Source of the DNA: Chloroflexota bacterium
GTDB lineage: Bacteria; Chloroflexota; Limnocylindria; Limnocylindrales; CSP1-4
Direction of reading: 5' to 3'
Assembly (NCBI GenBank): GCA_025454515.1
Contig: JALOOH010000022.1
Span: 1-45,066, forward strand
DNA length: 45,066 nucleotides
Positions 267-23,633 of the stretch are shown here, in pieces (the first letter of the stretch is position 1; each line of letters opens with the position of its first letter). Below the pieces are notes generated by a model. The model ran no database searches. It had not been told where the DNA came from and saw nothing but the letters and a program-made list of their open reading frames with translations. Made by a program: the position numbers and the translations under genes.

Positions 267-702
267 ATGTCCGCGGGCCGCATCGAGGTCGTCGTCGAGA
301 GCGTCCGGGTGCACATGCTCTCGAGAGCCGGAGCGGCCGCTGACCCACGACCTGATGACCGCGCTCATGCGCGACCTCGGCGCGCGGGTGCGGGAGGTGG
401 ACATCGTGCGGCTCGAGGCCGAGACGTTCTTCGCGCGGATCGTCATCGAGGCGGACGGACGCCTCCACGAGGTGGACGCCCGCCCCTCCGATGCGCTCGC
501 GCTCGCGGTGCGGACCGGAGCGCCCGTGTACGCGGCCGAGGACGTGCTCGACCGGGCCGGGGTGCGACCCGAGCCGGACGATGAGGACGACGCCGACCGC
601 TCGGCGCCCGACGGATCGGACGAGCGCCTGTCGGTCTTCCGGGACTTCGTCAACTCCCTCGACGCGGACGATCCCGGCGAGGGGGGAGGTTCCCGGGGCT
701 GA
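267..702 (+). pseudogene. Bifunctional nuclease family (DUF151) gene with internal deletion and frameshift
   Basis: N-terminus MSAGRIEVVVESVRVHMLS is in one frame; EPERPLTHDL...FFARI...DARPSDALALAVR...VLDRAG follows in another frame from ~325. The conserved LPIWIG/EAxAIA segment normally between them is absent. Confidence 0.75.
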
Positions 703-711
703 CCCGCCCGG

Positions 712-1509
712 TCAGTCCGCCGACGGCCGCGTACCGCCGGATGCCAGGATCGGCTCCCCGCGTCGCAGGGCGCGCTGGCGGTCCGACCACATCCGCAGGC
801 GGAGCGACCAGAAGTCCTTCACCGCGCGCCACACGACGGAGACCTTCGCCCCCGTCTGCGAGCCGGCCGTCCTCGGGTGATGCGGGACGCCCACCTCCAC
901 GACGCTCCGGCCGCTCGCCCGCAGCTTGATGAGCATCTCCGCCGAGAAGAACGCCCCGCCGGACGCGACGCGGATCCCGTCGAGGGCCTCGCGCCGGAAG
1001 AGCTTGCACGCGCAGTCCACGTCGGTCACGCGCAGGCCGAACCAGACGCGGTTCGCGAACCGGTAGATCCGCGCGTACGCCGTCCGGACGAACGGGTCGG
1101 CGCGCTTGATCCTGAAGCCGACGACCACGTCCGGATGGTCGGCCTCCTCCATCCGGGCGGACAGCCGACCCAGGTCGGCGACCCGGAACTGGCGGTCGCC
1201 GTCGGTGAACGCGATGTGCGCGTAGCGGGACGCCCGGAAGCCCGACCGGAGGGCCGCGCCATACCCCAGGTTCGTCGGGTGGTGGACGGCCCGGACGACG
1301 CCCGGGTGCGCGGCCGCGAGCCGGTCGGCGATGCGCGGCGTGGCGTCGCGGGACCCGTCGTCCACGATGACGATCTCGAATCGCTCCGCGAGGGACGGCA
1401 GCGTCGCGAGCGCCTCGTCCACGAGGGGCTCCAGGTTGGCCTCCTCGTCGTGGGCCGGGAAGAAGTACGAGAGCTCCGGCAGGCGGGCCGGGGCGGCGGG
1501 CGCGGTCAT
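712..1509 (-). CDS. Glycosyltransferase family 2, DPM/polyprenyl-phosphate-sugar synthase-like
   Basis: SYFFPAHDEE, VDDGSRD, NLGYGAA, FTDGDRQF and TDVDCACKLFR motifs; ATG overlaps the stop of the upstream gene. Confidence 0.9.
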   Translation of the reverse strand: MTAPAAPARLPELSYFFPAHDEEANLEPLVDEALATLPSLAERFEIVIVDDGSRDATPRIADRLAAAHPGVVRAVHHPTNLGYGAALRSGFRASRYAHIAFTDGDRQFRVADLGRLSARMEEADHPDVVVGFRIKRADPFVRTAYARIYRFANRVWFGLRVTDVDCACKLFRREALDGIRVASGGAFFSAEMLIKLRASGRSVVEVGVPHHPRTAGSQTGAKVSVVWRAVKDFWSLRLRMWSDRQRALRRGEPILASGGTRPSAD

Positions 1510-3113
1510 GGCGTGGCTCCTCGGTCCGATGCGACCCGGTAGACGGTCTGGTTCCCCGCGACGAAGACCGGCTCGAGCACGAACGCCTCCTCGAGGTCCC
1601 GCAGGTCCGGCCAGCCCGGGATCACGTACACGGGTCGCTCCGGGAGATCGGCGCGGATGACGTCCGCCATGTCGCCCAGACCCTCGTCGAGCCGCGTCCG
1701 GTCGTCCACGATCCGCAGGTCGCCGCGGCGGCCCTCCACGATGGTCCCATACCAGAGCGGGGTCGAGTAGCTCCACCAGCTCACGACGGTGGCGTCGGGC
1801 TCGAACGCCGCGAAGGCGGACTCGACGAACGAGCGCGCGTCGAGGATGCCGACCTCGCTCGCCCGACGCTCCGACGCCGGGAGGCGTGCGGCCTGGGGGA
1901 GGACGAGCGCGACCGCGAGCAGGGCCGCGGCGACCGCGCCGGCGACGCCGGCCGGGGCAGGTCCGGCCGACGCGCGGGGACGGCGCGCCGCGCCCTCCAC
2001 GAGCTCCACGATCCACCCGGCGCCGACGACGAGCCAGCTCACCGCGACGATCGCCGGCCCCAGGTGGTAGCGGTCGATCTCCGCGTTGTCGTAGACCGCG
2101 GCGAAGACGAGGGTGATGACGAAGGCGGGCACCGTGAGGAGTGCGTACCGGGGCCGACGGATCGCCGTCACCACGGCCGCCGGGACGGCCGCGATGGCGA
2201 GGAGCCCCAGCTGGCCGGTCATCGCGTCCACCATGGCGCGAAGGGTGTCGAGCGGTCGCGCGAGCGGATCCCCCAGGGAGCCGCGGAACTGCTCTCCCAG
2301 CACGATGTACCAGAAGCCGTCCCACGTGCCGGGGCGCGCGTAGATGAGCGGGCGATCCAGCGCGACCGCGAGGGGCAGCTGGAGGTACGCGAGCGCCGCG
2401 ACCCCGAGGACGGTGACGGCGCACCCGAGGAGCATGCGCGGCCGCAGCAGGATCCGCGGCTCGGTGGCCAGGACGAACAGCGCGATCCCCGGGGCGACGA
2501 GGAGCATGAGCGCCTGGTTGCCCAGCGACGCGCCGTAGACGGCCGCGGCGGCGACGAGCCAGCGGTCCGTGCGGTCCAGGCCGGCCCGGCGACGGTCGCC
2601 CCAGACGACGAGCAGCAGCAGCACGACGCCGAGGAGGAGGGCGTGCAGCGCGTGGGGGTCGGCGTGGGTCGCGAGGTACCAGGCCTCGGGCATCAGGGCG
2701 ACGACGAGCCCGCCCGCGAGCGCGAGGACGGGCCGCTCCGTCAGCCGCCCGAACAGGAGCGTGGCGACCGCGGCCGCCCCGCCGATGAGCAGCGCGTTCA
2801 GCAGGTTCATGACGAACGCGGGCGAGCCGAACGGCTGGAGGACGACCGACGCGAGCCACCCGAGCGCGACGTACGTTGGGTAGCCGGTCGGGTGGGCGGT
2901 GCCGAAGACCGGACCGACGGTCTGCATCTCCCCGGTGTCCCAGAACGCGACGCCGGGGAGCAGGTGGAGCCACCCGAGCGCGAACGCGACGAGGCCGGCG
3001 ACGAGGGCGGCCGCGACGAGCGCGCGGGCGCGGCCCGGGTCGTCGACGGGGGCCGGCTCGCCGACGCGGCCGGACGGCGCCGTCGCGTCCCCGCCGGCGG
3101 GCGACCCGGTCAC
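1506..3113 (-). CDS. DUF2723 (GT117/TMEM260-like) GT-C membrane glycosyltransferase
   Basis: WDTGEMQ...GTAHPTGYPTY motif and many TM helices; GTG start overlaps the upstream stop. Confidence 0.8.
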   Translation of the reverse strand: MTGSPAGGDATAPSGRVGEPAPVDDPGRARALVAAALVAGLVAFALGWLHLLPGVAFWDTGEMQTVGPVFGTAHPTGYPTYVALGWLASVVLQPFGSPAFVMNLLNALLIGGAAAVATLLFGRLTERPVLALAGGLVVALMPEAWYLATHADPHALHALLLGVVLLLLVVWGDRRRAGLDRTDRWLVAAAAVYGASLGNQALMLLVAPGIALFVLATEPRILLRPRMLLGCAVTVLGVAALAYLQLPLAVALDRPLIYARPGTWDGFWYIVLGEQFRGSLGDPLARPLDTLRAMVDAMTGQLGLLAIAAVPAAVVTAIRRPRYALLTVPAFVITLVFAAVYDNAEIDRYHLGPAIVAVSWLVVGAGWIVELVEGAARRPRASAGPAPAGVAGAVAAALLAVALVLPQAARLPASERRASEVGILDARSFVESAFAAFEPDATVVSWWSYSTPLWYGTIVEGRRGDLRIVDDRTRLDEGLGDMADVIRADLPERPVYVIPGWPDLRDLEEAFVLEPVFVAGNQTVYRVASDRGATP

Positions 3114-4480
3114 CACCCCATCGCCCCGCGCCACACGACGCCCCACAGCTGCGCGAGCGCCGAGATGCCGATGAGCGCGAAGCCGACCCTCCGCCAGCGG
3201 TCCGACAGGCCGTCGAGGCCGAGCGCCGCCACGGGCAGGAGGAACGGCGCCCAGTCGAGTGAGAAGCGGTACCCGAACTGGACCCAGCCCTGGCTGAAGT
3301 GCATGAGGTCGAGCAGGGCGACGAGGCCCGCCGCCACGACGCCGCCGGCCACCACCGGGTCGCCCCAGCGACGGCGGATCGCCGGGAGGACGAGCAGCCA
3401 CGCCGGGCTCGTGAGCAGCAGGCTCATGCCCACCGCATCGGGCACGAGCCAGGGGCAGTCCGGGTCGAAGAGGCCGCGGGGCGCGTCGGCCGGCGTGCAG
3501 GCGGGCAGGACGTTCGGCGGCTGGAGCAGCATGATCGCGAGGTTGCGCGGGACGTAGCGCGGATCCTCGATGGACCAGTCGCCCACGTAGCCGAGCTCGG
3601 GATAGGCGTCCACCTCCTGGCGGTAGAGGTACTCGTACGCGGGGTTGAACAGGTGCCCCGAGGCGGCGTACGTGTAGCCGACGAGCCCAACCAACGGGAT
3701 GGCCGCCCCGAGCGCCACCGACGCGAGGCGGCGCCTCATCGAGCCGCCCCCGACGAACAGGAAGTACGAGCCGCCGAGCAGGACCGGCATCCGCGCGGCC
3801 GCGGCGAGCCCGAGGAGGAGCCCGGCGGCGACGAGCGGCGGGTCGACGAAGCGGCGCAGCCCCGCGGCCGGATCGAGGCCGACGACGCGCTCCCGAGCGA
3901 GGCCGATCGCCACGGCGCCGAGGACGAGCGGCAGCGCGACGACGTGCGCGGTCCACCACGTGGTCCCGACCGACGCCGCGTACCAGAGCACCGTCCCGAA
4001 GCCGAGGAAGAGGGTGGTGGCCAGCCGCGTGGAGCGCCGGATCTCGATCTCGCCGAGCATGCGGAACGCGACCCCGACGACGAGTGCCGCGGCGAGCGCG
4101 GTCAGCAGCTGCGCGTCCGTGGCGAGCCCCCAGACCGCGACGAACGGCAGCAGCGCGAGCGCCGGCAGCGGCGGGAACGGCAGGAGCCCGCGCCCCGTCT
4201 CGGACCCGTCGGGCCCGAGGATCGGCATGACGTCGTTGTAGTAGTCGTTGCCCGGCGCCGGGTACGGGATCGTCAGGTGACCGTCCAGCCACGCCATCCC
4301 CTGCCAGACGAAGTGCCGGTAGAGGTTCTCCCGGTCCAGGTTCGACAGGCCGTAGACGACGAGCAGCAGAAGGACGACCGCCCCGCCGACGGCGACGGAC
4401 GGGACGGACTCCAGGATGCGGGCGGGCTCGCGGGCCGGTCGAGCCGTCGTGGGGTGACCCGGGGCTATACTCGGTTGCAC
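3110..4480 (-). CDS. Polytopic membrane protein, probable GT-C glycosyltransferase (start uncertain)
   Basis: HFVWQGMAWLDG, PFPPLPA and GWVQFGYRFSLD motifs with many hydrophobic segments. GTG 4480 was chosen; the true start could be further downstream. Confidence 0.7.
   Translation of the reverse strand: MQPSIAPGHPTTARPAREPARILESVPSVAVGGAVVLLLLVVYGLSNLDRENLYRHFVWQGMAWLDGHLTIPYPAPGNDYYNDVMPILGPDGSETGRGLLPFPPLPALALLPFVAVWGLATDAQLLTALAAALVVGVAFRMLGEIEIRRSTRLATTLFLGFGTVLWYAASVGTTWWTAHVVALPLVLGAVAIGLARERVVGLDPAAGLRRFVDPPLVAAGLLLGLAAAARMPVLLGGSYFLFVGGGSMRRRLASVALGAAIPLVGLVGYTYAASGHLFNPAYEYLYRQEVDAYPELGYVGDWSIEDPRYVPRNLAIMLLQPPNVLPACTPADAPRGLFDPDCPWLVPDAVGMSLLLTSPAWLLVLPAIRRRWGDPVVAGGVVAAGLVALLDLMHFSQGWVQFGYRFSLDWAPFLLPVAALGLDGLSDRWRRVGFALIGISALAQLWGVVWRGAMGW
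4466..4471 (+). promoter_or_regulatory. Putative -10 element (TATACT) for the PMT fusion gene
   Basis: Near-consensus hexamer in the divergent region, 66 nt before ATG 4538. Confidence 0.4.
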
Positions 4481-4537
4481 CTCAACGCTCGTGCAGGAGG
4501 CCGAACTCGTTTGACCGGCCCTGAACGGGGCGGCCCC

Positions 4538-7500
4538 ATGGAGGGTGCGACCGCGGAGACCGGGACGACGAGGACCGGGAGCGACTACCGCGCGATCGCG
4601 ATCCTCGTCGCGGTCGGGATCGCCCTCCGGCTCATCATCGCATACGTCCTCCTCGAGCCGGGTTCGGGCTTCGGCGTGGACGTCGCGGCGTTCCGCTACT
4701 GGGCGGACAACCTCGCCGCGTACGGGCCCTTCGGCTTCTACGACCGCGGGTTCTTCGCCGACTACACCCCGGGCTACCTGTACATCCTCTGGCTCGTCGG
4801 GATCGTGGGCAGCTTCTTCGGAGGCGCGGGCGACCTCATCAAGCTGCCGCCGATCCTCGCCGACGGGGCGCTCGCGTTCGTGGTCTGGTGGATGGTCCGC
4901 GACATCGGCGGCGGCCGGCGCGCGGCGCTCATCGGTGCGGCGCTCGTCCTGTTCAACCCGGTCACCTGGTTCGACAGCGCGGTCTGGGGCCAGGTGGACT
5001 CGGTCGGGACGGTCGTCCTGCTCCTCGCCGTCCGGCAGCTCTGGAGGGGGCGGATGATCTCCGCCACGGTCCTCACGACCGTCGCCGCGATCATCAAGCC
5101 GCAGTTCGGGATCCTCATCCCGATCGCCGCTGCCCTCATCCTCCACCGGTACCTCGTGACCCGGCCGCATCGCGACGGCCCCCCGGGGATCGCGTGGCGG
5201 TGGCTCGCGCGCGTCGGGGTCCGCCGCCCGTCCCGCGAGGGCCTCGCCGATCTCGCCGGCGTCCTCGTCGCCGGGATCGGGACGGCCTTCCTGCTCTCGG
5301 TGCCGTTCGCGCTCATGCCGTGGGACCTCGCCCGGAAGATCGTCACGACGGCCGCGCAGTACTCGTACCTGACGGTCAACGCCTACAACCCGTGGGCGCT
5401 GCTCTCGCTTGACGTCGGGGGCGTGGTGAACGGCCTCGCGGCGAACGGCACGTGGGTGCTCGACGTCGCTCGCGACCCCGGCCAGCCCTTCTACTCCTTC
5501 GGCCCGGTCCCGGCGATCGCCGTGGGCACGGCCCTGCTCCTCGCGTTCATCGCCGTGCTCTGCGCGATCGTGTGGCGGCGCGACGATCGCCGGACGCTCC
5601 TCGTGGTCCTCACCGTCATGGCGATCGGTTTCTTCGTCCTGCCGACCCGCGTGCACGAGCGCTACCTGTACCCGGCCTTCGCGCTCGGCGCGATCCTCGC
5701 CGCCACGTCGACGCGCTGGCGGGTGGCGTACGTGGTCCTCGCGATCGCGAGCTTCCTCAACCTCTACGCGATCCTCACGCACCCGTTCTACGACAACCCG
5801 GGGATCTCCGACTGGCTGGGGATCGGCGACCTCGTCCGCTCTCCCGGCGGCGTGGCGGTCGTCGCCATCGCCCACGTCGGCGTCTTCCTCTGGTCCCTCA
5901 CGCGGCTGCGTCGAAGCGCCGTCGAGCAGGACGCGGAGGAGGCGCGCGCGGACCTGCTCGCCGAGGAGGCCGTCGACGCGATCGCGCTGGGCGACGCCGC
6001 CGTGCAGGGCGGCGATGCGGCCGCACGCCCCCCGCGCGTGCCGCCCGCGTCCGACGGCGCCGCCGCTGCCGCGGCCGCGACCGCCGCCGGGGCAGCGACC
6101 GCCGCCACGTGGGACGAGGACCGCCCGCCCGGCGACGCACGGGACGACGCGTGGGACGAGGAGCCCGACGACATCGCGTCCGGGGACGAGCCCGAACGCC
6201 GCCGCGGGATCCCGGGATGGCTGCGCGGGCTCGGTCGGTACCGGACGCACGACCGGTCGGCCCTCCTCGTGCGCGAACGTGGCGGCCGCCTCGACCGGCT
6301 CGACCTCTGGATCCTGTTCGTCCTCGTCGTGGCCGCGCTCGTGCTCCGCACGTACCGCCTCTCCGAGCCGTACCGGATGCACTTCGACGAGGTCTACCAC
6401 GCGCGCACCGCTACGGAGTTCCTCCAGTTCTGGCGGTACGGAGAGCCGCACGAGATCTACGAGTTCACCCATCCGCACCTCGCGAAGTACGCGATCGCGC
6501 TGGGGATCATGGCCTTCGGCAACGACCGGGTCGTCGCCACGAGCGACACGGGCACCCCCGTCGCGGACGCCGCGATCGAGGAGGTCTGGGACGACGGGCT
6601 GACCGCGACCGCCACTGGTGGCGGCCGGCTCTACCTCGCCACGGGCGCGACGGTCGATGCCTACGACCTCGCGAGCCGGGCGCGCGTCGCGACGATCGAG
6701 GCGCCGGGGGCGGCCGCCGTCGCCGTGGACGAGTCATCCCACCGGCTCCTCATCGGCACCCGCAGCGGGACGGTGCTCACGCTCGACACGATGTCCGCGC
6801 TCGAGGCCCCGCGGACCGAGGACGACGTCGGCGTGGCCGACCCCGCCCCGGACGTCCTGGCGACCCTGGGCGCGCCGATCGTGCGGCTGTGGGTGACGCC
6901 CGACGGGACGACGATCGCCGCGGCGCTCGAGGATGACGTCCTCGTGACCCTCGACGCGTTCTCCGGGGAGGAGCTCGGGCGGACCACGATCCCGGGACTC
7001 GGCGGGATCTCCGACGGCGGCTCCGCGCCGTCGATCGTCGTCGACACGTCCGGCGTCACGGACGCCAGGGCGCTCGCCGCGGAGCTGTTCCGCGTCGCCG
7101 GCCTCGACGAGGCGTCCACGGTCGAGCGGCTCGAGGCAGGTGCAGGAGGGCCCGTCGTCCTCGCCGGGGGCCTCGACGGCGCCGTGAAGACCGCTGTCGA
7201 GGACGCGATCGCCGCCGGCACCCTCCCGGGGGTCTCCGTGCAGGACCGCGCCCGGCTTGCCGTGGCGTCCGCCGCCGGCATCGACTTCGTGGACCCGGCG
7301 GACGCGAGCGTCACGGACACGGTCACGCTCCCCGACGCCGCAGCCGCGAGCGACCTGGCGAAGGTGACGGGCGTCGGGAACCCCGCGCTGTACGCCGTCG
7401 GGGGCCGCTCGCTGTGGCGCGTGGACCTCGGCACGGACGCCGGTACGTCGCCGCCAGCCGTGACCCGCACGCTCGCGATGCCGGGCGAGGTCCGGCGGGT

Positions 7501-9973
7501 GCTGTTCGACGACGCCACCCAGCAGGTGCACGTCCTGGGGCGGACGCCGGACGGATCCGCCGACACGATCTATGTCGTCGAGCCGAACGGGGTGACCGTC
7601 TATGCGGACGCGCGCCTGCCGTTCGATGCGGTCGCCTGGGCTTTGGATTCGGACGAGCAGCACCCCGCGAGCGACCGGCAGCAGATCCTCGCGTTCGCCG
7701 GGAGCGGCGCGTCGGCGGCCGTCTCCGCCGGGGCGCACGCGTTCGCCTGGCGGCTCCCGGGCGTCATCTTCGGCGCGCTGACGGCCGGCGTTCTCTTCCT
7801 GCTCCTGCGCATGCTCTTCCGCCGCCGGGCCGTCGCGGTGGTCGCGGGGATCCTCGTCCTCGCCGACGGGATGATGTTCGTCCAGTCGCGGATCGCGATG
7901 AACGACGTCTACGTCGGCTTCTTCGTGCTCGCGGCCTTCGCGCTGTTCGCCGCGCTGTGGACCGGCCGGCTGCGCGGCTGGCTCGCGTTCGCCCTCGTGA
8001 TGCCGCTCGTGGGGGTGCTGTTGGGGCTCGGCCTCGCGTCGAAGTGGGTCGCGCTGTACGCGCTCGGGGGGATCGGGATCCTCATCCTCATCCGGTCGGC
8101 GCTCGGAAGGGTCCTGCTCGTCCTGGGCCTGGCGGCGATCAGCGCGACGCTCGGCTACATGGCGATCGCCACGAGCCCGGACGCGACGACGAGCAGCGGG
8201 AACCTCTTCTTCCTCGCGATGATGATCGGGCTCACGCTCCTGGCCGTCGTGGTCACCGTGCTGCGGCCCGTCGCGTGGACGCTCGACGAGATGCGGTTCG
8301 CCGTCTACGTGCCGGGCGCCCTCGGCATCGCCGGCGCGCTCGTCGCCTTCGCGATGGGCATCGGGCAGCTCCCGCCCGCCGGCGAGCCGTCGGCCGGCCT
8401 CATCGTCCTGGCGATCTCCGGCGCTCTCGTCGCCCTGTCGCTCCTCGCGGTCGTCGCGTTCCGCGTCGGCGCGCGCTACGGCATGGGCCCGCTCGCCCCG
8501 CCGCCCGCCGCGGACGACCCCGCGAGCCTGCTCCCGCCCGCCGACCCGGCGCCGGAGGGCTGGCTCCACTTCGGCTCCGGCTGGGGGCTCCCGGCCGTCT
8601 GGCTCGTGGTGAGCCTCGCGCTCGTACCGGTGGCGGTGTACGTCGCGAGCTACATCCCGTGGGTCGCGCTCGGCAACAGGTTCACCGAGGGCTTCCCGGC
8701 GGCGAACGCCGGCCAGACGCTCCTGGACCTGACACGGTCGATGTACGACTACCACAACAACCTGCGCGCGACGCACGCCGCCTCGTCGCCGTGGTGGGCG
8801 TGGCCGTTCGACCTCAAGCCGGTCTGGTTCTACCAGGGGAGCTTCGACGGCACGTCCGCGGCCATCTACGACTCCGGGAACCTGGGGATCTGGTGGATGG
8901 GCGTCGTCGCGATGGCCTTCGTCGCGTGGCAGTCGTTCCGCCGGCGGAGCCTCGCGCTCGCGCTCATCGCCGTCGGCTTCTTCGTCATGTGGCTGCCCTG
9001 GGTCCGGATCGACCGTGCGACCTTCCAGTACCACTACTACGTCGCGCTGATCTTCCTCATCGCCGCGGTCGCGTACCTCATCGCGGACGTGTGGCACGGG
9101 CCGTCGAGGCGGACATGGCTGCTCGTGCGGGTCGCGGCGGCCATCGCGGTCATGGGGCCGGCCCTCATGTGGCTGTTCCGTCTCCCGCTCTGCGCGATCG
9201 TGGGGGTCGAGAAGGCCTATGCGGGCTCCCCGGCCTGCGCCCCCACCGTGGGCCAGCTCGTCGTGACGCAGCGCATCGGGGCGATCGTCGTCGTCCTGGT
9301 CGTCACCGGGATCCTCGTCGCGTGGCAGATGCTCGCGCTCGAGCGCGCCGCACGCGACGCGCGGGAGGGCCGCGTCCCGCGCGAGGAGGCCCGCCTCCGC
9401 CGCGACCGCCACCTCTTCGCGATCGCCCTCATCGCGGCAGCCGGCGCCGCCGGCCTCGTGATGACCGGCTTCCTGAGCGACAGCGCGCCGCTCCTCGAGC
9501 AGGACGGGATCTACCCGGAGCTGATCGCCCTCGCCGCGCTCGTCCCGCTCGGGATCTGCGCGTACGTCATCGTCACAGCGCGCGACGCGCGCCGGTTCGC
9601 GCTCGGCTTCATCTGGGCCGTGGCGCTGCTCTTCGTGTTCTTCTACCCGAACATCTCGGCGCTGCCGCTGCCGTCGCAGCTCTTCAACGCGTACCAGGGG
9701 ATCCTGCCCACCTGGCTCTACGTCTTCCAGTTCCCCGTGAACACGGACCCGCCCGTGACCGTGAAGCTGCTGGACGTGTGGCCGGCCGTGCTCTTCGTTT
9801 CGCTCCTCGCGACGTCCGCGGTCGTGGCCTACAGCACGTGGTCGTGGCGCGTGACGCTCGCGGAGCGTGCGGCCGAGCGGGGCGCCGCTCCGGGCGAGGG
9901 AGAGGCTCCGGGCGAGGGAGAGGCTCCGGGCGAGGGAGAGGCTCCGGGCGAGGGAGAGGCTCCGGGCGTCTGA
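4538..9973 (+). CDS. Double GT-C fusion (1811 aa): N-terminal GT87/PIG-M-like domain plus PMT (GT39) protein O-mannosyltransferase-like domain with a ~400-aa extracytoplasmic insert
   Basis: N-domain: DYTPGY, DSAVWGQVDS, IKPQ, TVNAYNPW, TRVHERY. PMT domain: HFDEVYH, THPHLAK, WRLPG, QSRIAMND, SKW, YHNNLRATHAASSPWWAWP, FQYHY. Confidence 0.85.
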   Translation: MEGATAETGTTRTGSDYRAIAILVAVGIALRLIIAYVLLEPGSGFGVDVAAFRYWADNLAAYGPFGFYDRGFFADYTPGYLYILWLVGIVGSFFGGAGDLIKLPPILADGALAFVVWWMVRDIGGGRRAALIGAALVLFNPVTWFDSAVWGQVDSVGTVVLLLAVRQLWRGRMISATVLTTVAAIIKPQFGILIPIAAALILHRYLVTRPHRDGPPGIAWRWLARVGVRRPSREGLADLAGVLVAGIGTAFLLSVPFALMPWDLARKIVTTAAQYSYLTVNAYNPWALLSLDVGGVVNGLAANGTWVLDVARDPGQPFYSFGPVPAIAVGTALLLAFIAVLCAIVWRRDDRRTLLVVLTVMAIGFFVLPTRVHERYLYPAFALGAILAATSTRWRVAYVVLAIASFLNLYAILTHPFYDNPGISDWLGIGDLVRSPGGVAVVAIAHVGVFLWSLTRLRRSAVEQDAEEARADLLAEEAVDAIALGDAAVQGGDAAARPPRVPPASDGAAAAAAATAAGAATAATWDEDRPPGDARDDAWDEEPDDIASGDEPERRRGIPGWLRGLGRYRTHDRSALLVRERGGRLDRLDLWILFVLVVAALVLRTYRLSEPYRMHFDEVYHARTATEFLQFWRYGEPHEIYEFTHPHLAKYAIALGIMAFGNDRVVATSDTGTPVADAAIEEVWDDGLTATATGGGRLYLATGATVDAYDLASRARVATIEAPGAAAVAVDESSHRLLIGTRSGTVLTLDTMSALEAPRTEDDVGVADPAPDVLATLGAPIVRLWVTPDGTTIAAALEDDVLVTLDAFSGEELGRTTIPGLGGISDGGSAPSIVVDTSGVTDARALAAELFRVAGLDEASTVERLEAGAGGPVVLAGGLDGAVKTAVEDAIAAGTLPGVSVQDRARLAVASAAGIDFVDPADASVTDTVTLPDAAAASDLAKVTGVGNPALYAVGGRSLWRVDLGTDAGTSPPAVTRTLAMPGEVRRVLFDDATQQVHVLGRTPDGSADTIYVVEPNGVTVYADARLPFDAVAWALDSDEQHPASDRQQILAFAGSGASAAVSAGAHAFAWRLPGVIFGALTAGVLFLLLRMLFRRRAVAVVAGILVLADGMMFVQSRIAMNDVYVGFFVLAAFALFAALWTGRLRGWLAFALVMPLVGVLLGLGLASKWVALYALGGIGILILIRSALGRVLLVLGLAAISATLGYMAIATSPDATTSSGNLFFLAMMIGLTLLAVVVTVLRPVAWTLDEMRFAVYVPGALGIAGALVAFAMGIGQLPPAGEPSAGLIVLAISGALVALSLLAVVAFRVGARYGMGPLAPPPAADDPASLLPPADPAPEGWLHFGSGWGLPAVWLVVSLALVPVAVYVASYIPWVALGNRFTEGFPAANAGQTLLDLTRSMYDYHNNLRATHAASSPWWAWPFDLKPVWFYQGSFDGTSAAIYDSGNLGIWWMGVVAMAFVAWQSFRRRSLALALIAVGFFVMWLPWVRIDRATFQYHYYVALIFLIAAVAYLIADVWHGPSRRTWLLVRVAAAIAVMGPALMWLFRLPLCAIVGVEKAYAGSPACAPTVGQLVVTQRIGAIVVVLVVTGILVAWQMLALERAARDAREGRVPREEARLRRDRHLFAIALIAAAGAAGLVMTGFLSDSAPLLEQDGIYPELIALAALVPLGICAYVIVTARDARRFALGFIWAVALLFVFFYPNISALPLPSQLFNAYQGILPTWLYVFQFPVNTDPPVTVKLLDVWPAVLFVSLLATSAVVAYSTWSWRVTLAERAAERGAAPGEGEAPGEGEAPGEGEAPGEGEAPGV
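9887..9968 (+). repeat. 18-bp tandem repeat (gctccgggcgagggagag) x4.5 encoding APGEGE
   Basis: Perfect copies read directly at the 3' end of the PMT fusion gene. Confidence 0.95.
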
Positions 9974-10027
9974 CCGACCCCGGACCCCGGCATCTCCGGG
10001 ACCCGGCACGCCCCGCGTCCGGCCGGC

Positions 10028-11218
10028 TCAGGCCCCCGGCCGGGGTGCCGCGGCAGGCGCCGGCGGGACCTCCGCGGTGAAGTCGCGCGGGAGCGACCCC
10101 TGGGCCGCCGTGCGCCGGATCACGAAGCCGTAGTAGTCGTCCACCCGCCGGGCGACCCCGCGCCAGCTGAACTCCTCCGCGCGCTCGCGGCCGCTCGCGC
10201 CCATCCGCTCGCGGAGCGCCGGGTCGTCCAGGAGGCGCCCGATCGCCGCCGCCAGCGCGTCCCGGTCCCCCGGCGGCACGAGCAGCGCCTGCTCGCCGCG
10301 CCGCACGACCCCCTTGTACCCGTGGATGTCGCTGCACACGATCGGGACCCCGGCCGCCATCGCCTCCAGCAGGACGATGCCGAAGGATTCGCGCCCAGTC
10401 GCGGGCGAGACGAAGACGTCCGCCGTGCGGAACAGCTGTGCCTTCTCGTCGTCGCTCACGCGGCCGAGGAACTCCACGCCCTGGAGGCGGCGCGTGGCCA
10501 CGTACCGGCGGCACTCGCGCTCCTGGGGGCCGCCCCCCACGAGGAGCAGGCGCGTATCCTCGCGGCCCTCGCGCCGCAGGACGCGGAACGCCTTGAGGAG
10601 GTGGATCAGGCCCTTGCGCTCCTCGAACCGCCCGACGAACAGGATGTTCCGGGCCCCGTCCTGCCACCGGGTCAGCGGGACGGCCCGCTGGAACCGGTCC
10701 ACGTCCACCCCGTTGGGGATGACCTTGTAATCGCCCGGGAAGTAGCGGTCGATGAAGTGACGCGCGGCGGCGCTCACCGCGATCCGGCCGTGGAGGCGCG
10801 CCGCGTAGCCGGCGAGCGCCCGCCTGCCGAACTCGTACGAGGGGGAGAATCCGGCGTACGCGTGGAAGGTCGCGACGTTCACGCTCCGCGACTCCTTGAG
10901 CACGGACAGCGACAGGAACGGCACGAACGGCTCGTGGAAGTGGAGCAGGTCGAACCGCTCGGCCTCGAGCATCGCCCGCGCCTGCCGGTCGAAGTTCGGC
11001 GAGATCGTGATCGTGCCCACGGAGCCGTTGGCCGGGAAGCTGAATCCCTTGCCGAGGCGGACGACGTCGCCCTCGGAGCCCCTCTGCGTCCCGTGGCTGC
11101 TGCTGATGATGCGGACCTGGTGGTCCCGGACGCGCAGCTCCTCGTACAGGTGGCGGACGTGGTCGTTCACGCCCCCGGGGAGCGGGTACACGTACGGGGT
11201 GACGAGGCCGATCTTCAT
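10028..11218 (-). CDS. Glycosyltransferase family 4, PimA-like phosphatidylinositol alpha-mannosyltransferase
   Basis: MKIGLVTPY..PGGVNDHV, ANGS, HFHEPFVP, ATFH, IPNGVD, RKG and ESFGIVLLEAMAAG motifs match the PimA pattern; in an operon with pgsA- and patA-like genes. Confidence 0.85.
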   Translation of the reverse strand: MKIGLVTPYVYPLPGGVNDHVRHLYEELRVRDHQVRIISSSHGTQRGSEGDVVRLGKGFSFPANGSVGTITISPNFDRQARAMLEAERFDLLHFHEPFVPFLSLSVLKESRSVNVATFHAYAGFSPSYEFGRRALAGYAARLHGRIAVSAAARHFIDRYFPGDYKVIPNGVDVDRFQRAVPLTRWQDGARNILFVGRFEERKGLIHLLKAFRVLRREGREDTRLLLVGGGPQERECRRYVATRRLQGVEFLGRVSDDEKAQLFRTADVFVSPATGRESFGIVLLEAMAAGVPIVCSDIHGYKGVVRRGEQALLVPPGDRDALAAAIGRLLDDPALRERMGASGRERAEEFSWRGVARRVDDYYGFVIRRTAAQGSLPRDFTAEVPPAPAAAPRPGA

Positions 11219-11230
11219 CGTCGGGCCCCA

Positions 11231-12025
11231 TCATCCCGCCCCGACGGGCTCACGCCAGTGCCGTCCGGCGGGCCACCGCCCTCGCGTCCCATCGCCGCGC
11301 ACGAGGCCCGCGATCCCGTCGCGCCAGCCCCGTCCGTACTTGGCGAGCTGTCTGCCGAAGGTGGGCAGCTGCTCGAGCGTGCCGTGGAACGCCCCGGCCC
11401 ACCGCGTCTCGCCGGCCTCGATCGCGGCGCGCAGATCGTCGGGGGTCGAGCCCCGGAAGAGCGTCAGCCCGGTCGCGACGGCGGCGGCTCGGTGCGCGTC
11501 GCTGCTGCCGAGCGCGGGGAGGGCCAGCTCCTCCGCGAGCCGGACGGCGGTGGCGTGACCCACGCGCCCGAACGTCGTCGGGTTGAACGCCTCGATCGCG
11601 TCGAAGCGGTGGCGCGGGTCCGGTTCGGCCGCCAGGCGTCGGATGGAGCGCGCGGAGACGCACAGCGGGTACGGGGTGGCCGGGTGCGCGGCGACGGCGA
11701 TCCCTCCCTGGTCGTGGATGCGGGCGAGCGTCTCGCGCAGCGAGCGCAGCGGCGGCACCCGCTCCGTCAGGAAGAGCCCCAGGACGTGGCCGCCGCGCGT
11801 CGAGACCTCCTCGGCGACGACGACCCGGACGGGCATCCCGCGGGCCTCGGCGATCCTGCTGGCGGCCTCTGCCGCGTCGATCCGATCGTGGTCGGCGATC
11901 GCGATGACGTCCACCGACGCCATCGCCTCGACGTGCTCGAGGATGGTCACGACGCCGTCCACCCCGTCGGACGCGAGCGTGTGGACGTGCAGGTCCGCGC
12001 GCCCGAGCCGGACATGCGCGGTCAT
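11231..12025 (-). CDS. PHP-domain metallophosphoesterase
   Basis: DLHVHT..SDG, IADHD, EEVST..GHVL, AAHP, IEAFN and GSSDAH form a complete PHP metal-ligand set. Confidence 0.88.
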   Translation of the reverse strand: MTAHVRLGRADLHVHTLASDGVDGVVTILEHVEAMASVDVIAIADHDRIDAAEAASRIAEARGMPVRVVVAEEVSTRGGHVLGLFLTERVPPLRSLRETLARIHDQGGIAVAAHPATPYPLCVSARSIRRLAAEPDPRHRFDAIEAFNPTTFGRVGHATAVRLAEELALPALGSSDAHRAAAVATGLTLFRGSTPDDLRAAIEAGETRWAGAFHGTLEQLPTFGRQLAKYGRGWRDGIAGLVRGDGTRGRWPAGRHWREPVGAG

Positions 12026-13041
12026 CGATCGCCGCCGCCCGGCGGGCGCCCTCCCGCCCCGGCGGCGAGGTCCGGCCAGATCGGATGGAACACCGCCCAC
12101 CACTGCTCCGGCGACTGGGCGACCGACTCCTCGATGAGCCGGGCGGTCTGCTCGAGGAATCGCACGACACGGACGCGGAGCCGCCCCTCGGCAGGGACCG
12201 GGACCTCGCGCATCCACCCGCGGTACCGACCGTCCCCCACCCGGACGACGGACTCCCAGAACACGCGCGCCCCGGTGTCCGCCGCGAGGATCGCCGCCCC
12301 CGTCGGCAGCGGGGCCGGGTGGCCGAAGAGCTCGACCTCCGTGCCCCCGCCTGAGATGTCGCGGTCCACGACGAGGAGCGCGGCCCCGCCCTCCTCGATC
12401 GCCTCCTTGAGTCGTCGCCGCGCCTGCGCGAGGCCCACGAGCTCGATGCCGGTCCCGGACCTCGTGCGCGCCATCCACGCCTGCATCTCGGGGTCGTCCA
12501 CCGTCTCCATCACGCCGACGACCGGCGGCCGCCGCTCGTGCCCGCCGACCCACGCGAGGATCTCCACCGGGCCGATGTGCGCGCCGATGTAGATGACGCC
12601 CCGCGGCTCGGCGAACGAGGCCGCCACGGTCGCCGGCGTCACCACGTGGAGCCGCTCGACCACGTACGCCTCGGAGAGGGTCGTCGCGCGCAGGGTCTCG
12701 ACGTAGTAGCGCGCGAGGTGCCTGTACGCGGCGCGGACCAGCGACTCGAGCGCCCGCGGATCCGAGGCCGCGCGCCGGGCTCGGGCCGGTCCTCGACCCT
12801 CTGCGGCGAGCCACGCGCAGACGCGGCCGAGGTTCGCGCGCGCCATCGCGGCGCGGCCGGGCGTCGCGCGGTACCAGAGCTCGCCGACCGAGTCGGCGGC
12901 GGCGAGCAGGGGCGTCTCCGGCAGCCGGCACGCGACGGCCGTCGCGCCCGTCAGCGCGCGCGCCCGGAGGCGCTGCGCCCGCGTCCCGCGCCCGCCCAGG
13001 ACGTCCTCGAGGTCGCCCGACGCGCCCGGCAGGTCCGTCAC
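12022..13041 (-). CDS. Lysophospholipid acyltransferase (LpxL/PatA family), paralog 2
   Basis: GAHIGPVE, VVDRD, LFGHPAPLPTGAA and PEQWW motifs; GTG overlaps the upstream stop. Confidence 0.82.
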   Translation of the reverse strand: MTDLPGASGDLEDVLGGRGTRAQRLRARALTGATAVACRLPETPLLAAADSVGELWYRATPGRAAMARANLGRVCAWLAAEGRGPARARRAASDPRALESLVRAAYRHLARYYVETLRATTLSEAYVVERLHVVTPATVAASFAEPRGVIYIGAHIGPVEILAWVGGHERRPPVVGVMETVDDPEMQAWMARTRSGTGIELVGLAQARRRLKEAIEEGGAALLVVDRDISGGGTEVELFGHPAPLPTGAAILAADTGARVFWESVVRVGDGRYRGWMREVPVPAEGRLRVRVVRFLEQTARLIEESVAQSPEQWWAVFHPIWPDLAAGAGGRPPGGGDR

Positions 13042-14042
13042 GGCCGTCCCGCGCCTCCGGGGTCCAGCCCGTACTCGGGGAGACGCGCGAGCAGTGCGGC
13101 GCGCTCCTCCTCGCTCGTCGGCCACATCGACTTGAAGACCCACCACTGGTCCGGAGTGCGGCGGATCGCGGACCCGAGCGCGTCGGCGATCGCCTGCGTC
13201 GCGCGCGCGACCTCGGCGGGCTCCGTCGACGCCACCTGCACGACGGGGCCGATCCAGCCGGCGTGCCAGCCGTCCCTGCGCCTGTGCATCGCGAACGGCG
13301 CGATGACCGCCCCCGTCCGCGCGGCGAGGACGGCCGGGCCGGCCGGGAGCGTCGTCCATTCGCCGAGGAACCGCGTGGGGACGCCGTCCGGCCTGTACCC
13401 CCAGTCCACGAGGAGCGCGACGGCCTCGCGGCGCCGGAGCGCCCCGTAGAGCTCGCGGAGGTTCCGCCACGGGAGGAGCCGCACTCCCCACCGCTCCCGC
13501 TCCACCCTGAGGAGCTCGAAGAGGTCCTTGTACTCCGTGTCGTCCGCGATGACGGAGATCGCCCAGCCGCGGTCGGCGATGGCGGCCGCGCCGATCTCGT
13601 TGTACGCCATGTGCGCGGCGACGATGATGACGCCCCGTCCCATGTCGAAGGCCTTCTGCAGATCGCCGGCCGCCGCCGTGTCCACGTTCGAGAGGATCTC
13701 GCTGCGCCCGAGCGCCGGCATGCGCATGAGGTCCACGACATAGCCGGCGTAGTTGCGGTACATGCGGCGGGCGAGCCGGTCCACGCGGCGGTCCGACGGG
13801 TCCGTCCCGAGGACTCGCGCGAGGCTCGCGCGCGACGCCCGGCGGCGCGCCGGCCACGCGAGGTACGTGCCCTGCGCGAGGACCCCGCCGACGCCCTTCG
13901 ACGCGGCTTCGGGGACGCGGCCGAGGGCCCAGGCCGCGCCACGGTAGGCCCGCACGACGGCCCGCTCGCGGACGCGCGTGACGAGGCCGCGGTCCTCGCC
14001 CGCGGCCCCCGCGCCCCGGGTCATCCCGCGCGCCGACGTCAC
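13038..14042 (-). CDS. Lysophospholipid acyltransferase (LpxL/PatA family), paralog 1
   Basis: AAHMAYNE, LVDWG, FLGEWTTLPAGPA and PDQWW motifs. Confidence 0.82.
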   Translation of the reverse strand: MTSARGMTRGAGAAGEDRGLVTRVRERAVVRAYRGAAWALGRVPEAASKGVGGVLAQGTYLAWPARRRASRASLARVLGTDPSDRRVDRLARRMYRNYAGYVVDLMRMPALGRSEILSNVDTAAAGDLQKAFDMGRGVIIVAAHMAYNEIGAAAIADRGWAISVIADDTEYKDLFELLRVERERWGVRLLPWRNLRELYGALRRREAVALLVDWGYRPDGVPTRFLGEWTTLPAGPAVLAARTGAVIAPFAMHRRRDGWHAGWIGPVVQVASTEPAEVARATQAIADALGSAIRRTPDQWWVFKSMWPTSEEERAALLARLPEYGLDPGGAGRP

Positions 14043-14758
14043 CGCTTCGCCGCGCTCGCCTGCGCCCGGACGCTCGCGACGCGCTGGACGACCGTGATCG
14101 TGGCGAGGACGAAGATGGCGCCCACGCCGAGGAGGAACGGCGCGTTGCCGGCGGTCGTGAGGCCGGCCGTGGGATCGGCGGGATCCCACGGAGCGACGCC
14201 ACCGAGGATGCCGGTGAGGATCAGCGCGACGGTCAGGACGACGAGGCGGATCTCGCGGGGGGCGAGGCCCACGCTCGCGAGGCCGGAGCCCGGCGAGAAG
14301 CCGAGCCCCTCCGCGCGGGCGCGGGCGTAGCTGACCATGAAGGCCGACGAGAGGGCGAGGATCGACAGCGTCGCGCCGAGGTCGTTGCCGGCGGCCATGC
14401 ACCCGACGGCGACCCCGACCCACGTGATGGCCTCGCCCCAGCGGTCGAACGTGGAATCGAAGAACGCGCCGAGCGGGCCGACCTTCCCGGTGGCCCGGGC
14501 GAGCGTCCCGTCGAACATGTCGAAGACGCCGCCGACCATCACGACGATCCCGGCGACCAGCCAGAGCTGGAACCCCGCGAGGAGTGCCGCCACGATCGTG
14601 ATCCCGAACCCGAGGAGCGTGAGCCCGTTCGGCGTGAGCCCGAGGCGCCCGAAGAAGAGGGCGATGGGCTCGAAGACCTTCTTCACGGCCTGCCGCTGCT
14701 CGGCCGACGTGAGCGAGCCACTGCGCTCGCGACCGGGGGTCCCGCCCTGCGATGTCAT
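14039..14758 (-). CDS. CDP-alcohol phosphatidyltransferase, probable phosphatidylinositol-phosphate synthase (PgsA1-like)
   Basis: TPNGLT, signature DMFDGTLAR...GAFFDSTFD, SYARARAE, and TVVQR near the C-terminus. Confidence 0.88.
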   Translation of the reverse strand: MTSQGGTPGRERSGSLTSAEQRQAVKKVFEPIALFFGRLGLTPNGLTLLGFGITIVAALLAGFQLWLVAGIVVMVGGVFDMFDGTLARATGKVGPLGAFFDSTFDRWGEAITWVGVAVGCMAAGNDLGATLSILALSSAFMVSYARARAEGLGFSPGSGLASVGLAPREIRLVVLTVALILTGILGGVAPWDPADPTAGLTTAGNAPFLLGVGAIFVLATITVVQRVASVRAQASAAKR

Positions 14759-14759
14759 G

Positions 14760-15050
14760 TCAGCCCTCCACCCCGAGGAGCTCGCGCTCGCGCGCGGCCA
14801 GCTCGCGGAACGCCTCCGGTCGGATCGCCACCCGCGTCTCGCGGCCGTTCCGCCGCGTCTCGACGATCCCCGCTGCCCGGAGGCGCGAGATGTGCCAGCT
14901 CACGAGCGGCTGCGAGAGACCCACCGTCTCGACGAGGTCGCTCACGCTGGCCGCCCCGGCGGCGAGCCGCCGGATGATCCGCAGGCGATTGACGTCGGCG
15001 AGCGCCCGGTGGGCGTCGCGCAGCGCGCGGAGGTCCGTGGGCTGGTCCAC
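14760..15050 (-). CDS. ArsR/SmtB family transcriptional regulator
   Basis: ALADVNRLRII...SVSDL...SQPLVSWHISRLRAAGIV wHTH pattern. Confidence 0.88.
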   Translation of the reverse strand: MDQPTDLRALRDAHRALADVNRLRIIRRLAAGAASVSDLVETVGLSQPLVSWHISRLRAAGIVETRRNGRETRVAIRPEAFRELAARERELLGVEG

Positions 15051-15141
15051 GACGGAGGCGATCGAGCGGCGGATGCGGCCGGGGCTGGGCAGAAGAGGGT
15101 CCTCGTCGGGTGCGACGCGAGCGCCGTGCGGCGCCTGCGAT

Positions 15142-15189
15142 TCATATAAACGGGCATTGATGATAGGAGCCGCTCCAGCGGCCTGTCAA
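15142..15189 (-). promoter_or_regulatory. Sigma70 promoter TTGACA-N18-TATCAT with an overlapping ArsR-like box
   Basis: Minus-strand TTGACA (15189-15184) and TATCAT (15165-15160), followed by ATCAA-N6-TTTAT, which resembles the ArsR ATCAA-N6-TTGAT box; AT-rich island. Confidence 0.7.
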
Positions 15190-15394
15190 GGTCGCCACGA
15201 CCGTGCGCGGCGGCGCCTGGCGTCGGATCCGAGCCGGCCGACGGGAGGAACGCCCCTTCCCCGCGCGGGAGACCCGCGCTAGCATCAGCGCGGATCGCGG
15301 ACAGTGCGATCGGTCGGCGACCCCGACGGACGAGGGCAGGCGATCCCGGGGCCCGGGTCCGGCGGCCGCTCCGGCCGGCTATGGGGTGCGAGCG

Positions 15395-16837: not shown

Positions 16838-16891
16838 CGCGGGACGGCCGCCGGGCACTCCGACGGCCGCCGGATCGCGCGCACCGCCACC

Positions 16892-16929
16892 CGAAGGAGG
16901 GGCGGCCCCCCGGGGCCGCCCCTCCTTCG
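16892..16929. terminator. Long GC hairpin, probable terminator
   Basis: cgaaggaggggcggcccc-cc-ggggccgcccctccttcg, an 18-bp perfect inverted repeat downstream of the 15395 gene; no U-tract. Confidence 0.65.
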
Positions 16930-17001
16930 TGCCGTCCGCCGGCGCCCGATGGGCCGGTCGGCCGCTCGCGCGCACCGTCTCCGCGTGCGACCATCGGGGG
17001 G

Positions 17002-22864: not shown

Positions 22865-23562
22865 CCGGGGCCTCCTCCCGTCTCGACGGGGAGCCCCGCG
22901 AGACGCCACTCCGGATACCCGTCCTCGAGCCGGCGCGCCCGGCGGCCGAGACGTCGGAGCAGCGCCACTCCCTGGGGCGACATCGCGCAGTAGGGTCCCC
23001 GGCAGTAGGCGACGATCTCCACGTCGGTCGGGAGCTCGGCAAGTCGCGTCTCGAGCTCGGACAGCGGGATGCTCACGGCACCCGCGATGTGTCCTGCGGC
23101 GAACTCCTCGGCCGGCCGGAGGTCCACGACCACGGCATCGCCGGCGCGGACGCGCGCGACGAGCTCCTCGCGTCCCACCGCCTCGACGGGCGCCCCGAGG
23201 TAGCGGGCCGCGGCCTGCTCGGTCGTCCCGAGGCGCGACGCGACGGCCTGCAGGGCGGCCAGGAGCGCGTACGCGTCGTCGTGGGCGAGGACATACAGGA
23301 CGCGCGTCCCGACCCGGCGCGAGGTGACGAGCCCGCCGCGGCGGAGCACCTGGAGGTGCGCGGACGCCAGGGCGACCGAGATGTCGGCGCGGGCCGCGAG
23401 GGCCTCCACGGATCGCTCGCCCTGGGCGACGAGCTCGAGCAGCTCGATCCGGTGCGGATTGGCGAGCGCCTTGCCGACCTGTGCGAACGCCTCGTGGAGG
23501 TCGTCCTTGGCGACCCGGGTCCCGACCGTGGCTGCGCCGTGCGCCGCATCCGTGCCTCTCAT
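22861..23562 (-). CDS. ArsR-family regulator fused to a rhodanese domain
   Basis: GKALANPHRIELL wHTH, followed by DLRPAEEFAAGHIAGA and YCRGPYC. Confidence 0.92.
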   Translation of the reverse strand: MRGTDAAHGAATVGTRVAKDDLHEAFAQVGKALANPHRIELLELVAQGERSVEALAARADISVALASAHLQVLRRGGLVTSRRVGTRVLYVLAHDDAYALLAALQAVASRLGTTEQAAARYLGAPVEAVGREELVARVRAGDAVVVDLRPAEEFAAGHIAGAVSIPLSELETRLAELPTDVEIVAYCRGPYCAMSPQGVALLRRLGRRARRLEDGYPEWRLAGLPVETGGGPG

Positions 23563-23567
23563 GCTGA

Positions 23568-23589: not shown

Positions 23590-23633
23590 ATCGACATCGA
23601 GCACCGTCCCGGCTCGGCTCCCGGAGGGCGACG

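Follow-up and report, generated by a model that had tools for sequence, protein, structure and literature searches.

Why should a bacterium outside the Actinobacteria carry an operon of phosphatidylinositol mannoside (PIM) genes that runs directly into the gene for a very large membrane glycosyltransferase? The question is raised by positions 712–15050 of contig JALOOH010000022.1 (45,066 nucleotides, analyzed at full length and called the window here), from a Chloroflexota bacterium of soil or wetland that belongs to the class Limnocylindria. The original prediction had placed this locus in a probably non-mycobacterial lineage, which proved correct, the organism not being one of the Actinobacteria, and had described ten genes that include an operon converging on a double fusion of GT-C-fold glycosyltransferases; all of its family assignments hold. 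It had also joined these genes into a single clustered pathway, and this part was not supported in that form. We favor instead, with a probability of roughly 0.5, two linked envelope glycoconjugate modules: a PimA-side operon (module A, 10028–15050), which would make a mannosylated and acylated phosphatidylinositol (PI), and a GT-C side (module B, 712–9973), in which the N-terminal half of the fusion (g4) would extend the PI-glycolipid, while its C-terminal half, which resembles protein O-mannosyltransferases (PMTs), and a second GT-C protein, g2, would glycosylate proteins.

A reading of module A as an early acyl-PIM pathway is well supported by the predicted families of its six genes, all of them on the minus strand. 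The last one (10028–11218) encodes a GT4 glycosyltransferase of 396 aa, of which residues 1–366 matched the PimA structures 4n9w and 2gej in the PDB at 211.7 bits (E = 1.6e-61), compared with 89.3 bits (E = 2.5e-24) for the next-best GT4 structure and 82 bits for PimB′. The PGGV N-terminal Gly loop and the EX7E motif (ESFGIVLLE) align with PimA at matching residues, both motifs being common to GT4 enzymes and not specific to PimA. By every test applied, this protein is a predicted PimA orthologue, in agreement with the grouping originally proposed; the second-best GT4 of the same genome is 33% identical to it over residues 103–367.

The CDP-alcohol phosphatidyltransferase of the operon (PF01066, 239 aa, 14039–14758) resembles phosphatidylinositol phosphate (PIP) synthases and is called PIPS below. 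Its leading NCBIfam scores were for archaetidylinositol-phosphate synthase (128.4 bits, cut-off 180) and PIP synthase (PIPSynth, 110.9 bits, cut-off 170), its top PDB matches were PIP synthases (1.6e-16), and the family signature D-x2-DG-x2-AR-x8-G-x3-D-x3-D is intact (DMFDGTLARATGKVGPLGAFFDSTFD at residue 80). The rival rows were far weaker (PgsA 17.8 bits, ClsA 22.2 bits), which sets the enzyme apart from the synthases of phosphatidylglycerol phosphate and cardiolipin, as had been anticipated.

Next to PIPS lie two PatA-like acyltransferases, PatA1 (334 aa, 13038–14042; Lip_A_acyltrans 117.8 bits) and PatA2 (339 aa, 12022–13041; Lip_A_acyltrans 73.2 bits). The best NCBIfam row of both was the PIM acyltransferase NF005919 (139.6 and 98 bits, respectively, cut-off 209), and the PDB matches of PatA1 were exclusively to PatA (1.2e-23). 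The His-x4-Asp/Glu motif that defines the acyltransferase family of PatA is found in both, as H144-x4-E (H144MAYNE) in PatA1 and as H155-x4-E (H155IGPVE) in PatA2. Between PatA2 and PimA, a PHP-family metal phosphoesterase of 264 aa (11231–12025) carries a DLHVHT motif, a PHP_C domain (43.2 bits in Pfam) and a CehA/McbA domain that stays under its cut-off (68.6 bits, cut-off 80); its nearest Atlas clusters, mostly from Chloroflexota, are named “hypothetical protein”. The first gene of the operon encodes an ArsR/SmtB-family regulator of 96 aa (14760–15050; HTH_5; NF033788 74.8 bits, cut-off 55).

In relatives, a further gene of 1.2 kb lies between PIPS and PatA1 and encodes a myo-inositol-1-phosphate synthase (MIPS; PF01658, 125.5 and 119.5 bits). 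It stands within the operon in 47 of 50 loci of the class and provides the strongest contextual support for the predicted inositol head group. A Nudix or HIT gene, such as reportedly occurs in the mycobacterial PIM operon, had also been considered for this position and was rejected in favor of MIPS. Of the predicted acylated PI-mannoside anchor, the early PIM enzymes are supported, and MIPS was not found in this genome, a point that we take up below.

The assembly (2.76 Mb in 301 contigs, 84.8% complete; G000 here, with the window as contig C139) has a GC content of ~75% in the window, where the raw list of open reading frames is crowded with spurious frames; genes were therefore called from a frame plot of the GC content at third codon positions (GC3) together with in-frame start candidates. 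The ten genes at 712–15050 form three units: the minus-strand operon ArsR, PIPS, PatA1, PatA2, PHP and PimA; g4 alone on the plus strand, converging on the PimA gene across a 54-nt gap; and g3, g2 and a GT2 gene (g1) on the minus strand, divergent from g4. At four junctions (g1/g2, PHP/PatA2, PatA2/PatA1 and PatA1/PIPS, the last three within the operon) the stop codon of one gene overlaps the start codon of the next by 4 nt, and the start candidates of g2 at 3113 and 3116 overlap the g3 stop at 3110. Upstream of ArsR, a candidate sigma-70-like promoter on the minus strand (15189–15160, TTGACA-18-TATCAT, 11 of 12 matches) is the sole such site in 600–15500, where 0.2 would be expected from shuffled sequences, and is a match to consensus only. 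The overlapping codons and the single promoter-like site support the prediction that the operon is one transcription unit. The starts of g3 (minus) and g4 (plus) lie 30 nt apart, at 4480 and 4511, and match coordinates point to starts just as close together in many relatives (g3 near 9970, g4 near 10001–10031); no promoter-like site was found between the two starts in the window.

To follow the locus within the class, an alignment of ten g4 orthologues (A1) was scanned against one genome per species, which gave 574 pattern matches, 547 of them encoding a relative; two loci with in-frame stops were left out of the alignment (L014 with three, L023 with one). The synteny counts were drawn from the best 80 g4 loci, whose sources are titled Chloroflexota, Chloroflexia, Anaerolineaceae or Candidatus Limnocylindrales/Limnocylindria, with one exception titled Patescibacteria group. 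An actinobacterial origin, which the GC content of ~75% had suggested at first, is refuted by these titles. Wherever at least 1.5 kb is available downstream of g4, PimA converges directly on it (60 of 60 loci), and PimA, PHP, PatA2, PatA1, PIPS and ArsR follow g4 in all 47 loci with at least 7 kb. The two halves are thus co-conserved in the class, and none of the three findings that the original prediction had named as refuting it was made. This arrangement is far from chance, given its recurrence in 60/60 and 47/47 loci, and the adjacency of g4 and PimA holds although g4 identity falls to 43–57%. Upstream of g4, in the 59 loci with at least 4.5 kb of flank, GT2 and g2 were each found in 56 and g3 in 44. 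All 12 loci fetched from family f1 share the arrangement of the window, and every member of the class that was searched carries both modules. As a side observation, one locus of the same genus (L014, G005:C41), the one whose g4 has three in-frame stops, also has g2, g3 and PatA1 matched as several shifted pieces, which could reflect decay of the locus or indel errors in the assembly.

Module A extends well beyond this class. A PimA-like gene (E ≤ 1e-50), mostly full length and 43–50% identical, was found in 219 of 301 Chloroflexota genomes (five of the 219 being unpublished) and in none of those from families f9 (0/20) and f13 (0/18). Fifteen PimA loci were then picked, for their long contigs, from 11 other Chloroflexota families. 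Beside PimA, these encode PIPS (15/15), MIPS (10/15), one or two PatA-like proteins (12/15; a tandem pair in 10), ArsR (8/15) and PHP (7/15), the smallest version of the operon being MIPS-PimA-PIPS. The position of PIPS differs: it comes after PimA, at the operon end, in other families (L109–L122, L126) and at the operon head, after ArsR, in Limnocylindria. The g4 N-half was detected in 20 of 151 genomes, namely this one, 4/4 from f1, 1/1 from f2, 10/10 from f3 and four weaker matches elsewhere; 16 of the 20 carriers, this genome included, belong to the class, and outside it only G154 gave a strong match (7.2e-79, in an 805-aa open frame). A PMT-like core was present in 27 of the 151. From these searches, the putative inositol-lipid operon has an old origin and a wide distribution in the phylum, and the double GT-C fusion is a feature of the class.

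The fusion itself (g4, 4511–9973, plus strand, 1820 aa) starts at a TTG behind a GGAGG that is conserved in relatives; a start at 3299, given by the raw list of frames, was rejected in its favor. Its N-half (aa ~1–505, 4511–6025) was recognized as a GT-C module from a structural model built with 66 orthologues (pLDDT 87.8, pTM 0.85). In Foldseek, the model matched ALG6 (6.7e-7, TMt 0.67), the GPI mannosyltransferase GPI-MT-I (3.4e-5, TMt 0.69) and PimE (1.1e-4, TMt 0.65), at a sequence identity to these of just 14–15%. Its own Pfam scores are borderline (Alg6_Alg8 25.0 bits, equal to the cut-off; GT87 20.2 bits, cut-off 25), and among the 66 orthologues GT87 was matched in 39 and Alg6_Alg8 in 26 at E ≤ 0.01; its profile retrieved chance rows only (E ~0.7) from the PDB sequences. 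D57, D84, K111, D118, D163 and a HERY motif are invariant, with acidic residues in the first loop. Downstream, a low-complexity linker rich in Ala, Asp and Pro (6026–6289) is marked by pLDDT values below 50 from residue 518, and the GC content at the second codon position is raised over 5851–6150.

The C-half of g4 (6290–9973) is a PMT-like (GT39-like) GT-C module that scores above the cut-offs of both PMT (PF02366, 46.4 bits, cut-off 22.7) and PMT_4TMC (PF16192, 51.8 bits, cut-off 32.4); no other Pfam domain, MIR included, was found in it. An Asp-Glu motif in the loop after the first transmembrane segment (TM1) defines the PMT family, and here it reads FDEVYH and is invariant in 10 of 10 orthologues. 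The affinity is distant: against the bacterial Pmt equivalog NF058602 the C-half reached 35.1 bits (cut-off 800), and the whole of g4 gave one weak row among the PDB sequences, Pmt4 at 0.0033. One hydrophobic segment lies at residues 594–612, none between 613 and 1084, and many from 1085 to 1774; a soluble insert of ~370 aa (~6578–7765) therefore shares the first external loop with the catalytic motif, and the topology of PMTs would put it on the outer face of the membrane. Searches with a 396-aa stretch containing this insert gave nothing in Pfam at E ≤ 5 and no Atlas hit that could be used. Past the last hydrophobic segment, the protein ends in five tandem GEGEAP repeats (9899–9970), and this tail is poorly conserved in the orthologue alignment. 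At least 1170 fused relatives of g4 are present in public protein sets, under generic or automatic names.

The remaining genes of module B are on the minus strand. The product of g3 (3110–4480, 456 aa) matched no Pfam or NCBIfam family, and its profile found nothing among the PDB sequences. A start at ATG 4297 (395 aa) was rejected, as the 61-residue N-terminal extension with TM1 is conserved in relatives; the structural model and alignment A2 were built from this 395-aa form, and the first 61 residues, TM1 included, are absent from the model (pLDDT 85.3). The top 20 VIA-align rows were all GT-C proteins (Z 18.8 to 10.4, led by Pmt1-Pmt2 at 18.8 and ArnT at 17.6), the next row falling to Z 4.6, and Foldseek gave no match at E ≤ 0.001 (best E 5.9e-3). 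The predicted structure thus confirmed g3 as a GT-C-fold protein. At least 2485 homologues occur in public protein sets, and each name given by its source is “hypothetical protein”. The neighboring g2 (1506–3116, ~536 aa) is TMEM260-like, with PF11028 at 79.9 bits (cut-off 24.2), PMT_2 at 21.4 bits, under its cut-off, a FWDTGE motif in the first loop and eleven hydrophobic segments. The four GT-C domains announced for the locus were thus all recovered, g2 and the g4 C-half by Pfam and the g4 N-half and g3 by structural models.

The last gene of the module, g1 (712–1509, 265 aa), encodes a soluble GT2 (Glycos_transf_2, 97 bits; no hydrophobic segment found) of the DPM1/ArnC kind, with DDGS and DGD motifs. 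Its best NCBIfam rows were ArnC (54.1 bits) and PpgS (53.8 bits), a Dol-P-hexose transferase also being among the best, all far under their cut-offs, and in the PDB it matched ArnC (1.3e-11) and the Pyrococcus DPM synthase (5.4e-6). Its placement in the polyprenyl-phosphate glycosyltransferase class is supported as a prediction, and the sequence does not assign its sugar.

From the observed gene content, folds, family affinities and synteny, we infer the following scheme, in which this applies to every substrate and sugar and to the link between the modules. Module A would carry out the cytoplasmic-face steps of an acylated PIM pathway under the ArsR-type regulator. The PIP synthase would join CDP-diacylglycerol and inositol-1-phosphate, the PHP phosphoesterase would take the phosphate off PIP to give PI, PimA would transfer mannose from GDP-mannose to PI, and the two PatA paralogues would attach one acyl chain or, as the tandem pair suggests, two. 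Being a metal phosphoesterase that recurs in the operon, the PHP protein is our candidate for the PIP phosphatase; 8 of the 15 loci from other families are without it. Module B would act on the outward-facing side of the membrane, where the four GT-C modules would draw on a polyprenyl-phosphate hexose donor that GT2 would load, probably with mannose. ALG6, GPI-MT-I and PimE act on lipid-linked glycans, two of them on PI-anchored ones. The g4 N-half has its nearest folds among these enzymes that elongate lipid-linked glycans, while the C-half and g2 fall in families of protein O-mannosyltransferases, and a split role is therefore favored: the PimE/PIG-M/ALG6-like N-half would most likely elongate the PI-anchored glycolipid of module A, and the PMT-like C-half and g2 would O-mannosylate envelope proteins, with the insert in the PMT loop selecting the substrate.

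Several observations weigh against this scheme. The modules are convergent and so lie on separate transcripts. In family f2, with genomes of 1.0–1.4 Mb, the operon is intact with no module B gene beside it (4/4 loci); the fusion (open frames of 1403–1477 aa) and a divergent adjoining GT2 are present in all five genomes searched, ~24 kb from PimA on the same contig in the three placeable ones. In f3, also of the Limnocylindria, the fusion lies 4.5–10 kb from PimA. Since the operon is also found throughout the phylum where the GT-C set is absent, module A can do without module B. Convergent orientation, separation in these two sister families and module A on its own elsewhere together weigh against a single obligate pathway. 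PIPS, PatA1, PatA2 and GT2 all score under the NCBIfam equivalog cut-offs. No PimB-type second mannosyltransferase was seen in the locus, nor PimB′, MptA/MptB-type mannan polymerases or Emb/Aft arabinosyltransferases in scans of the window, which included no dedicated search for them. The PMT and TMEM260 families are both protein O-mannosyltransferases, and the fusion points to a common substrate for its two halves. Finally, no MIPS was found in the operon or in the assemblies of this genome, G002 (L031) and G325 (L033), which are 81–85% complete, so that its absence is unproven; inositol phosphates could be scavenged.

The main alternative, a possible reading that we consider less probable, is two independent systems that merely neighbor each other. 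Module A would then make a small (acyl)PIM-type lipid, like that expected of other Chloroflexota, and module B would be a self-contained protein O-mannosylation system, their adjacency being inherited synteny: GT2 would make polyprenyl-phosphate-mannose, the PMT-like half would start Ser/Thr O-mannosylation, and the N-half, g2 and g3 would elongate or diversify the protein-linked glycans. The above-threshold PMT and PMT_4TMC domains with their invariant DE motif and the TMEM260-like nature of g2 are consistent with it, and the fusion of two GT-C modules suggests that they act in succession on a single acceptor. GT2 always lies next to the GT-C genes in divergent orientation and accompanies g4 even where PimA is 24 kb away. 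Of the 27 genomes with a PMT-like core, 11 (one of them unpublished) from four other families have it as a stand-alone frame of ~550–800 aa, truncated to 365 aa in one. Unrelated genes also lie between the modules in f3 (L123, 4754–13100; L124, 4117–8635), encoding a GNAT acetyltransferase, an ABC-2 permease and ATPase, and LiaF-like and PspC-domain proteins; the transporter may export a glycolipid or have no connection with the locus. However, the best structural matches of the N-half handle lipid-linked glycans and not proteins, and PimA adjoins g4 in 60/60 loci of the class in spite of the divergence of g4, both of which argue against this reading.

A role of the GT-C set in making or modifying a mannan- or arabinan-like cell-wall polysaccharide, neither PI-anchored nor protein-linked, is unlikely. 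AftA, AftB, AftD and Emb are among the structural matches of g3 and the g4 N-half, and g3 has no named family, but these matches rank under PMT, ArnT and the ALG-type enzymes, and no polymer export or ligase genes were seen in the window.

We regard as very unlikely that the operon of this genome no longer makes an inositol lipid, either through the use of another alcohol phosphate by PIPS after the loss of MIPS or through decay. MIPS was not found in three genomes, and its deletion junctions (14039–14042 in the window, and those in L031 and L033) differ among all three, so MIPS may have been lost more than once; five close relatives (G004, G005, G006, G326 and G327) have one copy each, in or beside the operon near PimA in four of them and, in G006, on another contig than PimA. 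However, the five enzyme genes of the operon are intact in the window, with GC3 values of 0.94–0.97 and their catalytic motifs kept, PIPS is 91% identical to that of the MIPS-bearing relative L029, the assemblies are incomplete, and inositol phosphates could be scavenged. Scarcely credible is the “GPI-like” coupling to protein mannosylation also raised by the original prediction. Here the fusion, made up of a PIG-M/PIG-U/PimE-like module that would handle the PI-glycolipid and a PMT-like module that would glycosylate proteins and bind its substrate through the insert, would physically couple a PI-anchored mannolipid pathway to envelope proteins; as a bacterial counterpart of GPI-type logic, one enzyme would both build a PI-anchored glycan and glycosylate or tether surface proteins in a monoderm Chloroflexota envelope.

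How far, then, do the two linked modules depart from known systems? The module A enzymes fall into known families, and the expectation of an undescribed system fails for this half, which is a known kind of pathway. The actinobacterial early PIM operon reportedly comprises the PIP synthase PgsA1, PatA and PimA; the same three enzyme families share one operon here, and solved PimA, PatA and PIP synthase structures were the best matches. The Chloroflexota operon differs from it in its phylum, in the second PatA, PHP and ArsR, in the MIPS of relatives, in the scores of PIPS and both PatA proteins under the equivalog cut-offs, and in having no PimB-type gene seen at the locus. It also recalls the inositol-lipid cluster of Bacteroides (MIPS, PIP synthase and the PIP phosphatase BT_1525), since genes for MIPS and PIP synthase stand together with that of a possible phosphatase; the one here is of the PHP family, and mannosylation and acylation would follow instead of sphingolipid synthesis.

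On the GT-C side, PimE (GT87), PIG-M/Gpi14 and ALG6 (GT57) use polyprenyl-phosphate sugars to extend lipid-linked glycans. The g4 N-half has the fold of these GT-C enzymes and invariant first-loop acidic residues, its GT87 and Alg6_Alg8 matches being borderline, and differs in its low identity and its fusion to a PMT-like module. The C-half has the two PMT domains and the DE motif after TM1 in common with the GT39 PMTs (fungal Pmt1/2/4 and actinobacterial Pmt), as well as a GT2 synthase-like neighbor; unlike them, it scores far under the Pmt cut-off, has the ~370-aa insert without a family and is fused to a second GT-C module in a protein of 1820 aa. The PF11028 match links g2 to TMEM260, a metazoan protein O-mannosyltransferase, and to bacterial DUF2723, from which it differs by its place between g3 and GT2; we know of no bacterial TMEM260/DUF2723 member with an assigned substrate. 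Three features are new within the GT-C kind: a GT87/GT57-like module fused to a GT39-like one, a PMT loop with an insert, and the g3 family, which has no name.

Further genes were noted elsewhere in the window. Past the promoter region, 15203–18537 encodes a protein with two CarboxypepD_reg domains and a DMFA2_C-domain protein; these stand beside ArsR only in the closest relatives (L029–L031, L106) and are therefore placed outside the locus. An apparent small cluster for sulfur trafficking at 22861–23984 comprises a fused ArsR-HTH/rhodanese protein, a DsrE-like gene divergent to it and an adjoining class-V aminotransferase (cysteine desulfurase-like). The plus strand carries a heme biosynthesis operon at 26486–36734, with genes for glutamyl-tRNA reductase, a fused porphobilinogen deaminase/uroporphyrinogen-III synthase, ALAD, a class-III aminotransferase, URO-D, ferrochelatase, a radical SAM protein and an amine-oxidase-type (HemY-like) protein. 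It is followed on the minus strand by a PIN-domain toxin with a MazE/AbrB-type antitoxin upstream (37256–37896).

PIMs are treated as actinobacterial lipids, and we found no paper that links PimA or PIMs to Chloroflexota in a search that did not extend to subscription journals. Bacterial inositol lipids as a whole are introduced in one study as relatively uncommon and, in the long-held view, confined mostly to Actinobacteria and Spirochaetes, and where that study turns to the actinobacterial PIP phosphatase it reports the enzyme as unidentified (10.1101/2021.04.26.441525). For a cultured member of the Chloroflexota, the polar-lipid data of another report give PI as a polar lipid and list glycolipids as unidentified (PMC12453558). 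The occurrence of an operon of MIPS, PIP synthase, PatA and PimA across much of the Chloroflexota extends PIM genes beyond the Actinobacteria. The operon also offers candidates for two steps, with PHP as a candidate PIP phosphatase, the step reported as unidentified in Actinobacteria, and the second PatA as a candidate enzyme of the second acylation. The g4 fusion family and the unnamed g3 family extend the GT-C repertoire, with at least 1170 relatives and at least 2485 proteins, respectively. If these lipids are produced, they would represent a conserved part of the envelope that has been overlooked in abundant bacteria of soil and freshwater.

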